Source of the DNA: Desulfobulbaceae bacterium UBA5121
Lineage (GTDB): Bacteria; Desulfobacterota; Desulfobulbia; Desulfobulbales; UBA5123
Reading direction: 5' to 3'
DNA length: 64,000 nt
Assembly (NCBI GenBank): GCA_002414225.1
Contig: DHYV01000042.1
Coordinates: 20,878 to 84,877, forward strand
Of this stretch, positions 51,910-55,646 are shown one piece after another (within the stretch, counting starts at the first letter, position 1; every line of letters begins with the position of its first letter). Both the position numbers and the translations under genes were made by a program. The notes below the pieces were generated by a model that saw only the letters and a program-made list of their open reading frames with translations, had not been told where the DNA came from and made no database searches.

Positions 51910-54900
51910 TTATATGGTCGCATTTTCTTGTCCAAATGTATTGCTTGTTGTCGGTGAAACAAAATTATCTCTGTTTTCCTCCAGTGTTGCTGCACTATTA
52001 TAATCACCATCCGCCCTAAACCTGTTAATTTTCTGGTTAAATAACTGATATGCTTGCGTATAGGCATCTCCGGCGTTGGCCCCATCAATCAGTGCCTTGT
52101 CGATCTCTATGTCGCAATCACAAAATTCGATCTGACTTGCTATAATAAGTTTAAACGGTAACTTATAGCCGAAAAAAGCCTTTGCCCCTTTACTTACAAG
52201 ATCTGCGCCTATTCCGGTAATGTACCCACAATTGCAAGCAAAGAAATGAAAGATCTTACTACCAGCTTGCCGATTGGTGACTTTCTCATTGATGACCTCG
52301 GGCAACGGATTGTCCTTTGGTGCCCACCCTGTCAGATAGGATGGTCGGCCATGCCCCGAAGCCGTACAATATGAGAGACTGGATTCATTAAGTTCCTTGC
52401 TAACCTTGTCTGGTACGTCATCAGCTCCAATTAATGACGATTGAAGATTCTTGTATTTGCTTGCCGTGACATAAGGATACAAACGTATCTTTCTTCTTTT
52501 GTAAATGATTTGTGTTGCCTGGTCATCATCTACGTTTGCATCTATGAGAAGAATACTCCCTGTTCCGGTAATATATCCTCCTGTCCCTTGGGACTGCTGG
52601 ATGGCAACTGACTTCTCGTTCTCCACAGAAAGCATATAGTCTTTGGCAACCATTTCTTCTACTGCAAGTCCGGCCACCACGACTGCTCCGACAGCCAACA
52701 CCGTACCACCAGATGCAACAACGGCAACAACCGCAACCGTCGTAACTGCTGCTACAGCAACCGCTGCCCAGAAATGACCCCATCCACTCCATGAAAGCAT
52801 AACCATATTTCTAGACATTGAGTATGAAGTGACGAGATCATGATGCGAAGGTGGTCTGGAAAAGAGAGGCTCGAGCGTGTTGCGGGTGGTTTCAACAACA
52901 TCGGCAATCGGGGCCGCCTGCAACTGGAAGTGGTATGATCTGTTGCTGTAAGCCGTTATCGTAATCTTCCAATCACCCGGTTCGGGATTTACCACCGCCA
53001 GAATGCCGAGGCTGTTACCTTTCATGAGAACATAAAGAGTATCGGTATTGGTGTCTTTTTGAAACTTTTTACCGGAAGGATCTTCAATAGTTAACGTTAC
53101 ATCATCAGGTACTAAAAAATTAAAGGAGTTATCGACAATACAGGCATAAAGCGACGTTGTTCCTTCCTTAATCGTAACAACTTGTCTTCTCGTTACCTCC
53201 TTCGGGTCAACAAGATCATTCTGCGGATTTTCTATCTGACAGAAGACATAGTTGTTTGCACCATAAGCCCACACACAATGAAAGACAGGAGCAAAGCTGA
53301 TATTTCCATTTGCCTCAAGCCTGTTTCTGTATTGGGAATCATCATCCAGATCATAATTAAGTGACCAAAAACCAGCTAAATGGTCTTCTTGTCCGCTCAA
53401 TCTTCCAAACATAACTAAAGCCAACTGATCCGCACTCAATGCACAGCTCCAAAATCCCACATTCATGACGATTCCGCAAAATTGATTATACGGCTCCTGC
53501 TGTTGTTGAGTGGCTCCGATCATCATCGGCAGTGAGTTGTTAATATTCAACGGAGTATTTTTATTGGAACGAGGTGTAACGCTGACGGCTTTCCCATCCA
53601 CATAAATACTCAACTTCCCAGAAGCCCTGACTCCCGCAACAGCATGATGTTCTCCATCAAAGATATCTGTCGGAACAGAGTTAACTTCATAGAAACCGAA
53701 TCCGTCATCGGTCGCAAATTTAATGACACCGTTATCCTTGATTACAAGTAGAAAACCGCCGTTCCCGGGGCCGCCTTCGGTTCCCTTTCTTGATATCACC
53801 GTCCCAGGTTTACTCGTTTGTACCATAGCCGACACGGTAAAATCACCAAGACCGACATCGTAGGCAGATATAGGTGGTGCCGTCAGATTACCTTGTGTCA
53901 ATAGTTCAACACCAAATGCCGGATGGCTTGTGGCATTGACTATCCATGTCAAATCATCACATAAGGCAGTATACTGATCAATTACCCTTCCCTGCTGCAT
54001 AACCAGCCATTGGGTCTTTTCGGTTGTGATTTGATGAAATTGTTTTTTTGCGGGAATAGTGGTGTAAAACAACAATGTTCCATCAGCATTCACCTTGTAG
54101 AGTTCCAGGTACATTGATAAATGGTTTATAAGATTAAAAGTTACTGTTTTGGATGACTCAAGCGATGGCAGGAAACCATCACCAAGCTCAACAAGGTTCC
54201 ACTCAGTAAGACCCGGATAGGCATAATACCCGGAAAAAACTGTTCGTCCATCTTTGGCTAGAAAGTATTGCCCCTGATACGCGTCATAGGTAAAGGAACC
54301 GCCGGGTTTTATCTGCGTAATTTGAACCATATTTCCCTGGCTGTCGACTCCATAGATATCAACATCACTCGATCTCTTGTTCGATATACTGATAGTGTGC
54401 GTTTGGTTTGCTTGCCCAGTAAATTCCACCGGTCCATCTTGCGGTCTGGGATTTATCGAACCGCTGAAACTGCTTATCTCATAGCTACGGCTGAAAGTAA
54501 TATTCCCTTTTGCTCTGGTTGTTTTAATATCCTGCCAGTCAAAATTAAGGTTATTGGACTGCGGGTTATAGTCAAAATCGATTCTTTGCCCTGCAATGTC
54601 GAGGGTGTCATTATTATGAACGATAAGCGGAGAAAAATAACTGCCCCACCAATGTGTTTCCGTATTGTAATACATAGCCCAGAACGAGAGCGGCATTCCT
54701 TGGTGCGTTCCGGTGTAGTTTTCCTCTTTCCCTGTGGATTGCAGGGTTATGGTTCCGGTAAACAGCGCATTTACATCATTAATTGAAAAAACGATATGGC
54801 CCTTGAGGATATCCGTTCCAATTTGACACCAGTCAAATGTCAAAGTATTGCTATATGCATCGTATTGGTATTCGATGCGGTCTCCCGCTATGGTAACTTC

Positions 54901-55293
54901 TCCCGTAGGGTGAACAACGAGTGGAGAAAGAGCAGAACCAAGAGAACCGGCCTGTGTGACATAATTTCCCATCCAGCAGGATAACGGTTTTCCTTGTATT
55001 GTGCCTGTAAAACTGACGGGACCATCTTGAGGTCGGGGATTAATCGACCCTGAGAAGCTATTGTCTCCGCTATTAAAAGTAATTGTGCCTTTTGCTATCG
55101 TTCCGGAAATGACCTGCCAGTCGAAGGTCATTTGGTTTTTGGCGGCATCGAATGTGTAGATAATTTCTATTCCTGCTATTGTTACACGTCCGTTCGGATA
55201 GACAATAAGCGGTGAAAAATAACCGTTCCACCAGTGCGTTTCTGTATTATATAATCCTGCGAATTTACATATGGGTAATATTGTTAAAGACAT
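51910..55293 (-). CDS. 1127-aa multidomain protein of unknown function; see evidence for the seven-part domain layout
   Basis: Domain layout: (1) Three roughly 95-aa repeats, each with THWW..YFSPLIV...FDW...FSGSINPRPQDGPV.FTG. (2) Two beta domains (residues roughly 298-455). (3) A LamG-like region (GDFTVSAMV...GFLLVIKDNGVIKFATDD...HHAVAGV...LSIYVDG). (4) A beta-sandwich (roughly 700-795). (5) A 39-residue hydrophobic stretch (840-878). (6) A C-terminal CTASGHG (His981) ... FHFFACNCG (Cys1020) dyad with caspase-like spacing. No signal peptide. Confidence 0.75.
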   Translation of the reverse strand: MSLTILPICKFAGLYNTETHWWNGYFSPLIVYPNGRVTIAGIEIIYTFDAAKNQMTFDWQVISGTIAKGTITFNSGDNSFSGSINPRPQDGPVSFTGTIQGKPLSCWMGNYVTQAGSLGSALSPLVVHPTGEVTIAGDRIEYQYDAYSNTLTFDWCQIGTDILKGHIVFSINDVNALFTGTITLQSTGKEENYTGTHQGMPLSFWAMYYNTETHWWGSYFSPLIVHNNDTLDIAGQRIDFDYNPQSNNLNFDWQDIKTTRAKGNITFSRSYEISSFSGSINPRPQDGPVEFTGQANQTHTISISNKRSSDVDIYGVDSQGNMVQITQIKPGGSFTYDAYQGQYFLAKDGRTVFSGYYAYPGLTEWNLVELGDGFLPSLESSKTVTFNLINHLSMYLELYKVNADGTLLFYTTIPAKKQFHQITTEKTQWLVMQQGRVIDQYTALCDDLTWIVNATSHPAFGVELLTQGNLTAPPISAYDVGLGDFTVSAMVQTSKPGTVISRKGTEGGPGNGGFLLVIKDNGVIKFATDDGFGFYEVNSVPTDIFDGEHHAVAGVRASGKLSIYVDGKAVSVTPRSNKNTPLNINNSLPMMIGATQQQQEPYNQFCGIVMNVGFWSCALSADQLALVMFGRLSGQEDHLAGFWSLNYDLDDDSQYRNRLEANGNISFAPVFHCVWAYGANNYVFCQIENPQNDLVDPKEVTRRQVVTIKEGTTSLYACIVDNSFNFLVPDDVTLTIEDPSGKKFQKDTNTDTLYVLMKGNSLGILAVVNPEPGDWKITITAYSNRSYHFQLQAAPIADVVETTRNTLEPLFSRPPSHHDLVTSYSMSRNMVMLSWSGWGHFWAAVAVAAVTTVAVVAVVASGGTVLAVGAVVVAGLAVEEMVAKDYMLSVENEKSVAIQQSQGTGGYITGTGSILLIDANVDDDQATQIIYKRRKIRLYPYVTASKYKNLQSSLIGADDVPDKVSKELNESSLSYCTASGHGRPSYLTGWAPKDNPLPEVINEKVTNRQAGSKIFHFFACNCGYITGIGADLVSKGAKAFFGYKLPFKLIIASQIEFCDCDIEIDKALIDGANAGDAYTQAYQLFNQKINRFRADGDYNSAATLEENRDNFVSPTTSNTFGQENATI

Positions 55294-55646
55294 TACTGTT
55301 CCCCTTGTTTTTTAGCTTTTTCTACATCCTCTAATAGCATTTCAACTGCCCGCACGCCGTTCTTGATAAGTCCCTGGCCGATTGTTGTGTTCTTCGCAAC
55401 CTCTTCAAGAGCGCGTTTCAGATCAATAAATTCATGCCCAACGAATAGGTCAGACCATTCTCCAGCCTTCCAACGCTCGACAACCAAATCAATTTTCTGC
55501 TTGCTATTGAGTTTTTTCAAAGGATTCAGTTGTCCCGTATTATCAATGATATCTTTCAGCAAAATGAGCTGCCCGGTATCTTTATGAAACCCGATAGGTC
55601 TTTCGTAATGTCCAGCCTTCTCTAATCTCTTCTTTAATGTATCCAT
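55293..55646 (-). CDS. Hypothetical 117-aa protein, translationally coupled to the 1127-aa gene
   Basis: TAATG overlap (stop 55293-55295, next start 55291-55293). AGGAG RBS before ATG 55646. No family recognised. Confidence 0.6.
   Translation of the reverse strand: MDTLKKRLEKAGHYERPIGFHKDTGQLILLKDIIDNTGQLNPLKKLNSKQKIDLVVERWKAGEWSDLFVGHEFIDLKRALEEVAKNTTIGQGLIKNGVRAVEMLLEDVEKAKKQGEQ

Follow-up and report, generated by a model that had tools for sequence, protein, structure and literature searches.

A predicted clan CD-like cysteine peptidase domain and its small upstream partner on an integrated island of a Desulfobulbaceae bacterium

Among described prokaryotic systems that join a caspase-superfamily peptidase to a small upstream protein, the EACC1-caspase two-gene conflict system was defined by Kaur, Burroughs, Iyer & Aravind in 2020 (PMC7159879), and cleavage of EACC1 together with pore formation was reported in a 2025 preprint by Evans et al. 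(PMC12642450). The preprint also covers Pepco, which forms beta-barrel pores and is activated by loss of a charged C-terminal tail of about 20 residues (~2 kDa) (PMC12642450). Clan CD peptidases are further known from toxins: Zhang et al. (2012, PMC3482391) describe them as the C-terminal Tox-Caspase domains of polymorphic toxins and as the domains by which RTX and clostridial glucosyltransferase toxins process themselves. Here we analyse a stretch of 64,000 nucleotides from Desulfobulbaceae bacterium UBA5121 (contig DHYV01000042.1, positions 20,878 to 84,877 of the forward strand; hereafter the window), in which a gene for a protein of 117 amino acids (aa), the partner, immediately precedes a gene for an 1127-aa multidomain protein that ends in a caspase-like His/Cys domain. 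The closest described system is the EACC1-caspase pair, with which this locus shares the gene order but not the defining features.

A first-pass annotation of the window had singled out this pair, and its description of the genes proved accurate. The two open reading frames (ORFs) lie where it had placed them and overlap by one base in TAATG, the codons that it assigned to His981 and Cys1020 encode those residues with 38 others between them, and the strings ILLIDA, SYCTASGHG, KIFHFFACNCG and KGAKAFFGY are all found in the translation. Two features were absent from it, namely a 47-residue hydrophobic stretch (residues 838–884) preceding the domain and the setting of the pair on an integrated island. 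The genes and the domain are placed as follows, in coordinates of the window.

55293..55646, minus strand: partner gene, 117 aa (ORF list)
51910..55293, minus strand: large multidomain gene, 1127 aa, its start codon overlapping the partner stop by one base (ORF list)
51913..52560, minus strand: residues 912–1127, predicted clan CD-like His/Cys domain followed by a three-helix bundle (AlphaFold2 models, Foldseek, hidden Markov model search)
52351..52353, minus strand: His981 codon CAT, predicted catalytic His in a GHG motif after strand beta3 (AlphaFold2 model; 150/150 sequences)
52234..52236, minus strand: Cys1020 codon TGC, predicted catalytic Cys after strand beta4 (AlphaFold2 model; 152/152 sequences)
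52246..52248, minus strand: His1016 codon, second invariant His, four residues before the Cys (KI.H...C) and specific to the family (152/152 sequences)

The C-terminal domain

The arrangement of His981 and Cys1020 had been read as the layout of clan CD cysteine peptidases, a proposal that structure prediction bears out at the level of the fold. AlphaFold2 modelled the window domain with a predicted template-modelling score (pTM) of 0.76, and a homologue about 45% identical to it, the natural fusion protein P0002 described below, with a pTM of 0.80. Both models show an alpha/beta core in which a His-Gly pair ends strand beta3 and the Cys ends strand beta4. Foldseek searches of the PDB returned clan CD peptidases as nearly all of the top matches for these two independent models. 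The best match was the SAVED-CHAT protein 8tl0 (E 1.7e-4, TM-score 0.48–0.51), and the others included separase (5mz6), gingipain R (1cvr), caspase-4, Craspase TPR-CHAT, caspases-3/6/7/8/11, C11 peptidase and PIGK. Because the scores are modest, we take these matches as a fold-level assignment and not as membership of any of these families. At the sequence level, the motifs G.GHG and KIVHLLSC.TA..LG of the standalone subfamily (see below) appear to resemble CHAT motifs.

The residues of the proposed dyad are strictly conserved among homologues. Across 156 sequences, no substitution is seen wherever the column is covered at His981 (150/150), Gly982 (151/151), His1016 (152/152) or Cys1020 (152/152). 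The same four positions are invariant in an alignment of 58 sequences that share 23–55% identity, together with Gly1029, Gly1042, Tyr1043 and one C-terminal Gly, and Asp1061 and Asp1065 are nearly invariant in the domain family. The dyad His and Cys are also invariant in alignment A1, as they are in A3, the 58-sequence alignment, which is broad and was too diverse to use for back-translated patterns.

The family that shares this domain is large and mostly environmental. An exhaustive hidden Markov model (HMM) search recovered 804 representatives (50% identity level) at E <= 1e-3 and 305 at E <= 1e-10, mostly from environmental metagenome samples; the exhaustive search was needed since a word-indexed homology search had badly under-reported the family (4, then 21 matches). 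Most homologues are standalone proteins of ~205–245 aa, or proteins of ~680 aa with the domain at the C-terminus. When residues 885–1127 of the window protein were searched, no Pfam, NCBIfam, PADLOC or PHROGs model matched, and single-sequence and profile searches of the PDB gave nothing meaningful. Likewise, the 58 aligned members matched no Pfam or NCBIfam family (C11, C13, C14, C25, C50, C80 or CHAT) beyond a weak Peptidase_C25 match in one of them (E 0.0093). A scan of GTDB genomes returned a single locus, in a metagenome-assembled genome (MAG), while scans of viral contigs and of a plasmid collection returned no domain match. The phage collection held one divergent homologue, from an archaeal virus:

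BK063666.1 (locus L092), 3696–4639: 248-aa domain homologue of Caudoviricetes sp. vir519, host Methanofastidiosa (profile E 3.6e-28)

This copy keeps the His/Cys dyad, carries a C-terminal transmembrane (TM) anchor and is the sole one in which Val replaces the second His (His1016). Its overlapping upstream gene, of 66 aa, has a partner-like RW...EW motif but no significant HMM match.

The predicted folds and the alignments thus support the domain as a probable new family of clan CD-like (caspase/CHAT-like) cysteine peptidases, whose members would be expected to be proteolytically active.

The partner gene and its association with the domain

At the junction of the two genes, the partner stop TAA (55295–55293) and the ATG of the large gene (55293–55291) have a single base in common, and a Shine–Dalgarno-like AAGGGG lies 7–8 nucleotides (nt) 5' of this ATG. 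The minus-strand sequence here is ...gaacagTAATGtct..., the same junction region also being given as ...AAGGGGAACAGTAATG.... The close junction is not a one-off of the window copy: homologous loci show an overlap of 4 nt (L006 and L007) or 1 nt (L008), or a gap of 7 nt (L001 and L004). A scan for promoters and terminators gave counts at chance level and was uninformative. The 1127-aa protein is recorded identically in the NCBI assembly GCA_002448905.1, a MAG.

The coupling of the small to the large gene, which had been proposed from the shared base, is backed by strongly conserved synteny and by natural fusions. For homologues of the large multidomain type (long forms) we examined six distinct loci (L001, L002, L004/L005, L006, L007 and L008), and all six have a gene of 105–117 aa directly 5' of a Laminin_G_3 protein that ends in the same hydrophobic stretch and His/Cys domain. 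For the standalone subfamily we fetched 80 metagenomic loci, of which 64 had enough upstream sequence; in 60 of the 64, the gene immediately 5' of the domain gene, on the same strand, encodes a partner homologue detected by HMM. With a broader partner profile, eight natural fusions were found among ~150 representatives. Five of these have the order partner–linker–domain, two have partner–X–hairpin–domain, and one has a metallo-beta-lactamase (MBL) domain in the order MBL–partner–domain; at this locus an additional partner copy immediately follows the fusion gene, on the downstream instead of the upstream side. In all fusions the partner precedes the domain, from which a linker of ~40–50 residues separates it.

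One such fusion is P0002, which joins a partner homologue (BLASTP 4e-17) to the domain. In its AlphaFold2 model the partner-homologous part is compact, with a predicted local distance difference test score (pLDDT) of 90–98, and the pTM of 0.80 despite a disordered linker suggests that partner and domain may pack as one body. By extension, the separate partner would be expected to bind the domain physically.

The partner itself is a soluble protein without any hydrophobic segment and is predicted to be alpha+beta. Its family, of 28 homologue clusters, shares the motifs RW.aGEW.D and RA.EM.LED (alignments A2 and A6). Glu106 is nearly invariant within an acidic LED/LEE motif that closes the last helix, and the tail past this last conserved helix is short (3–10 residues) and variable, ending for example in ...LEDARA. 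The window partner has no match in Pfam, NCBIfam, PADLOC or PHROGs, 38 members of its family match no Pfam model, and no helix-turn-helix (HTH) or ribbon-helix-helix (RHH) domain was detected in the Pfam scans, those 38 members included. Two specific roles for the partner were considered and rejected. Cleavage after the Asp of its LED motif is disfavoured, as the Glu alone is nearly invariant and the remaining tail is too short; an Eag-like chaperone function for the hydrophobic hairpin is disfavoured, as standalone domains, which lack the hairpin, come with the partner too.

Long forms, island and neighbouring genes

Upstream of the peptidase-like domain, the large protein of the window is made up of repeats and beta-rich modules followed by the hydrophobic stretch.

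54403..55254, minus strand: residues 14–297, three tandem ~95-aa repeats, seen in the translation (YNTETHWW...IAG..I.Y.YD...N.LTFDW...F[ST]G[ST]I)
53929..54399, minus strand: residues 299–455, two small beta-rich ~75-aa repeats of uncertain kind (translation)
53422..53853, minus strand: residues 481–624, Laminin_G_3 (ConA-like lectin/glucanase; Pfam PF13385, E 4e-14)
52942..53103, minus strand: residues 731–784, part of a beta-sandwich like the hemicentin galactose-binding-like domain (GBD) (Pfam PF23560, E 3.1e-5)
52642..52782, minus strand: residues 838–884, Ala/Val/Gly-rich hydrophobic stretch with a central SGG turn (hydropathy scan)

Laminin_G_3 is the sole domain that Pfam recognises in the 1127-aa protein, besides sub-threshold signals for the hemicentin GBD-like region and for the OAA family. 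A PDB sequence search relates it to the LG domains of laminin alpha2 (2.3e-5); it is also found in all long-form homologues, and accounts for most of their N-terminal parts. The PF23560 match, of 24.2 bits, is under the cut-off of 27, and the same weak match recurs in L001, L006 and L008. The OAA-family lectin signal comes from the repeats at residues 14–297 and is weak as well (Pfam SBD, E 6.5e-5, 23.6 bits, no single stretch passing); a PDB sequence search with residues 1–297 found no relative. Residues 299–455 gave weak PDB sequence matches to a pneumococcal cell-wall-binding-repeat protein (4cnl, 1.9e-5) and to ThreeFoil (3pg0, 3.3e-3). The N-terminus, MSLTILPICKFAGLYNTE, is without the hydrophobic core of a signal peptide, and the Pfam scan revealed no trafficking or secretion domain, whether of the type V, VI or VII secretion systems, Photorhabdus virulence cassettes or similar.

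The hydrophobic stretch is a general feature of the long forms. Nearly all of them have it, and it is conserved across 48 long forms, as an uncharged run with a median length of 38.5 aa and 64% Ala, Val and Gly, which ends ~35 residues before the protease domain and often contains a central SGG.A.PA turn. We predict that residues 838–884 form a helical hairpin anchored in, or inserted into, the membrane. Such a hairpin would fit an arrangement in which both flanks are kept on the same side of the membrane, and without a signal peptide this side would be the cytoplasm. Residues 885–911, between the hydrophobic stretch and the domain, form a conserved linker with the motif SQGTGGYITG. Like the window protein, essentially all long forms carry the protease domain at the C-terminus.

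Several lectin genes and gene parts are seen at long-form loci. PA-IIL/LecB-type lectin genes lie directly downstream in L006 (10416–10841) and L007 (5042–5467), a Ricin-B lectin gene lies near the long form of L001 (6542–7057), and a PLL beta-propeller forms the N-terminal part of the fragmented long form of L095 (6749–7663). ParE, HEPN and PD-(D/E)XK genes surround the L006 pair, while the long form of L002 (1460–3120) has an internal deletion of ~130 aa that spans the GBD-like region. The long-form genes of L001 (8784–10804) and L095 (6749–9384) are split by frameshift-type breaks. We rejected a biological reading of these breaks as unsafe; given their frameshift-like nature and the origin of the two MAG contigs from closely numbered ENA analyses, they are probably assembly errors.

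Standalone cassettes of partner and domain frequently have a large and variable neighbour protein. In 27 of 77 loci (among L020–L085) this is a member of an unannotated family of ~600 aa with signal-peptide-like N-termini, encoded on the same strand, where its gene either precedes that of the partner or follows that of the domain (for example L027 2834–4585 and L058 6660–8531). The family has no Pfam match, and the idea that it is the unfused counterpart of the N-terminal array in the window was rejected, there being no similarity. Elsewhere a 1323-aa patatin-like phospholipase adjoins the cassette (one locus) or a peptidoglycan-binding GH19-like protein does so (six loci), and some cassettes stand alone amid housekeeping genes.

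The pair of the window lies within an island, which together with its other genes and one ORF just outside it comprises the following.

50276..62634, no strand assigned: integrated island of 12.3 kb that carries the pair (direct repeats, transfer-messenger RNA, integrase)
61356–62585, plus strand: tyrosine-integrase gene (PHROG 1, 2.3e-21)
within 50396–51087, minus strand: RelE/ParE-family toxin gene, 114 aa, at the island edge (TIGR02683, E 1.1e-23)
51249–51845, minus strand: P-loop protein, 198 aa, 64 nt downstream of the large gene (NCBIfam 'DNA topology modulation protein', PRK08118-like, E 2e-20, below cut-off)
55815–58404, minus strand: three genes upstream of the pair, of 337 aa, 310 aa (multi-TM N-terminus) and 134 aa (coiled-coil-looking), without family matches
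59215–59709, plus strand: 164-aa internally duplicated protein (ILSVAIDAKVKAMLEDYAEMF..PL....RN.IY..LDQF..LN twice), without family match
59807–61108, plus strand: 433-aa island protein (weak match to PHROG 'endonuclease' phrog_33635, E 8.4e-6)
49567–49896, minus strand: 109-aa ORF just outside the island, hydrophobic at its N-terminus and with a long low-complexity tail rich in Pro and Ala (APAPAAAPAPAEQAAPAPA...)

The island is bounded by 35-bp direct repeats (50276–50310 and 62600–62634, 97% identity), the second of which is the 3' end of the transfer-messenger RNA (tmRNA) gene ssrA, identified by ARAGORN and by Rfam (194.8 bits). The G+C content between 50 and 62.6 kb is 35–57%, compared to ~65% outside. 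The low G+C content, direct repeats, tmRNA end and integrase gene together mark the pair as cargo of a 12.3-kb island integrated at ssrA. Just past the island lies smpB (62969–63532).

As for the other island genes, the RelE/ParE-family toxin gene is followed by a 106-aa gene without family match (also within 50396–51087 on the minus strand), presumably the antitoxin, and the 433-aa protein may serve in replication or mobilisation of the island. The PRK08118-like, P-loop kinase-like gene is not conserved beside the pair at other loci. The three genes at 55815–58404 are probably not parts of the module, since they are absent 5' of the orthologous pair in L008.

Candidate functions and comparison with described systems

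We tentatively favour, at a little under an even chance, reading the pair as a conflict-type module in which the partner gates a clan CD protease. In its long form this unit would be joined through the hairpin to a recognition array, and in the window it rides on a mobile island. The small soluble partner and the His-Cys peptidase domain would make up a widespread, uncurated two-gene module, in which the partner acts as a cognate binding or regulatory subunit, a pro-domain-like gate on the protease. Translational coupling would provide this gate in trans, and fusion of the two proteins would provide it in cis; either way it would keep the protease restrained until some trigger. In the subfamily of the window, the Ala/Val/Gly-rich helical hairpin would tether the C-terminal protease to the membrane, the N-terminal array of lectin/ConA-like beta-sandwiches would supply ligand recognition or targeting, and the whole unit, as cargo of a tmRNA-integrated island, could have its role in biological conflict, be it defence or antagonism.

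A partner that resembles a pro-domain rather than a substrate is suggested by its compact fold (pLDDT 90–98) and its short variable tail, and a membrane tether by the conservation of the hairpin across the 48 long forms together with the lack of an N-terminal signal peptide. The context of conflict is suggested by the integrase and RelE/ParE-family toxin genes of the island, by the MBL fusion and patatin neighbour in relatives, and by the ParE, HEPN and PD-(D/E)XK surroundings of L006; a unit that rides an island integrated at a tmRNA gene most likely has such a role. MBL-fold and patatin-like proteins are effector types known from protease-effector defence modules (PMC12642450), and their occurrence here, along with the CHAT-like fold, would tie the family to the published protease-effector logic of prokaryotic defence (PMC12642450, PMC7159879). 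We infer inhibition as the direction of regulation by the partner, as well as the membrane topology and the biological role. A bolder proposal, which we hold to be possible if on balance doubtful, is that the family represents a class of caspase-like switch that is widespread in bacteria and has gone unrecognised. A small subunit dedicated to this task would gate a minimal clan CD protease, which in long forms would be wired to a cytoplasmic or membrane-proximal sensor array of glycan/ConA type and to a membrane hairpin. If true, this would be a new membrane-tethered innate-immune sensor-executor, or else a bacterial chimerolectin toxin with a caspase-like warhead.

Published protease-effector modules likewise place a small constant gene immediately before the gene for a caspase-like protease that carries variable modules (PMC7159879, PMC12642450). 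In the manner of EACC1 or Pepco, the partner could then be a latent effector that is cleaved after the N-terminal array senses a signal, with the cleaved partner or the freed hairpin killing or arresting the cell. Defence CHAT proteases as the top fold matches, the occurrence of the MBL fusion and patatin neighbour in the family, and the conserved acidic motif with its nearly invariant Glu106 at the end of the last partner helix are all compatible with such a latent effector. We nevertheless consider it unlikely: the partner is without a TM helix, 38 members show no HMM similarity to EACC1, Trypco/Pepco or CATASP, and cleavage past the conserved motif would remove almost nothing of the 3–10-residue tail. 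Moreover the model folds the partner with confidence and shows no obvious exposed linker within it, and the frequent N-terminal fusion of the partner through a linker of fixed length is more pro-domain-like. A more radical departure would keep the clan CD fold but not hydrolytic proteolysis, making the domain a transpeptidase or ligase (of the GPI transamidase or legumain type) or a thiol enzyme acting on a non-peptide substrate, unless the fold assignment itself is wrong. The modest fold scores, the want of a sequence link to any characterised peptidase, the family's own invariant His1016 and near-invariant Asp1061 and Asp1065, which lie outside the His-Cys dyad, and the presence of PIGK among the weak fold matches leave some room for this. 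We judge it very improbable, as a strictly invariant His-Gly...Cys dyad on consecutive strand ends is the signature of clan CD peptidases and members of this clan dominate the top matches of two independent models.

The module might instead be aimed outwards, as a released AB-type or chimerolectin toxin whose lectin array binds glycans of a target cell (predator, host or competitor), whose hairpin inserts and whose caspase-like protease is the cargo, with the partner as a cytoplasmic inhibitor or chaperone that protects the producer. Its release would have to be by lysis or ingestion, as there is no signal peptide. The large protein does carry several modules of sugar-binding type (Laminin_G_3 and the weak OAA and GBD signals), lectins recur in relatives (PA-IIL in L006 and L007, Ricin-B near L001, the PLL beta-propeller in L095), and the enzymatic domain sits at the C-terminus, where some polymorphic toxins have Tox-Caspase (PMC3482391). 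In fungi, chimerolectins such as MOA, which serve in defence against predators, also join an N-terminal lectin to a C-terminal cysteine protease (PMC4764322, PMC8244254, PMC13324453). Besides the missing signal peptide, no known trafficking domain was found in the large protein, and, in contrast to immunity genes, the companion gene lies upstream and is frequently fused in cis. The majority of the family consists of cassettes of partner and domain alone, with no delivery module. The hairpin, a run of ~40 residues, is not embedded in a translocation domain and would probably insert into the producer's own membrane. A released toxin is on this evidence improbable in our view. In gene order and overlap the pair would also suit a type II toxin-antitoxin system; no DNA-binding HTH or RHH domain was detected in the partner.

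We return to the partner-gated protease module and to how it compares with what has been described. Like the EACC1-caspase system, it is a compact mobile cassette with a small constant gene immediately 5' of a caspase-superfamily peptidase with variable modules, frequently associated with the membrane. EACC1, however, has a single conserved TM helix and a central Gly patch, whereas the partner is soluble, has neither feature and shows no HMM similarity to it. The hydrophobic, small-residue-rich element sits here in the protease protein, the protease is C-terminal and not N-terminal with variable domains C-terminal to it, and it belongs to a different, uncurated family whose partner is often fused in cis to its N-terminal side. 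Pepco and Trypco are likewise small proteins encoded directly 5' of a protease (Pepco is also of 117 aa), theirs being fused to sensor domains (PMC12642450). In contrast to Pepco, our partner is predicted to be alpha+beta, has almost no tail and gives no HMM match.

Among CHAT defence proteases, SAVED-CHAT (8tl0) and the Craspase TPR-CHAT/Csx29 (8d9h, 7y84) are the best structural matches. Our domain differs from them in being much smaller (~215 residues), in having its own small partner and in being without SAVED, TPR or CRISPR association, and none of the 58 members matches the Pfam CHAT model (PF12770). With the Tox-Caspase toxins it shares a caspase-like His/Cys domain at the C-terminal 'toxin' position of a large multidomain protein with binding repeats, but neither a domain for secretion or trafficking nor an immunity gene on the downstream side was found, and the constant companion is upstream or fused. 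The fungal chimerolectins MOA, PSL1a and CCTX2 (PMC4764322, PMC5256987, PMC13324453) offer a parallel in their N-terminal lectin and C-terminal cysteine protease; they are eukaryotic, have no hydrophobic hairpin or partner gene, and the MOA protease is papain-like and not of clan CD.

In prokaryotic immunity, the pairing of a caspase-like protease with a small protein encoded upstream is increasingly seen as a core principle, and it has parallels in the cell death of eukaryotes. The present analysis defines two families beyond the curated libraries, a minimal clan CD-like domain of ~215 residues and a partner of ~110 residues, and offers a compact, testable system for the gating of caspase-like enzymes, which consists of two genes, has three invariant residues and exists naturally both in cis and in trans. 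In the long forms, lectin array, membrane hairpin and protease come together in an unusual way that could point to a new type of sensor or toxin. The first-pass annotation had not recognised the arrangement as described, which holds in part. The general pattern, a small upstream gene and a caspase-like protease with variable modules, has been published (PMC7159879, PMC12642450), while both families and this architecture lie outside all libraries searched. Judged from sequence, what appears to be new relative to the known systems is thus a pair of uncurated families in a widespread module, and the distinctive architecture of its long forms.

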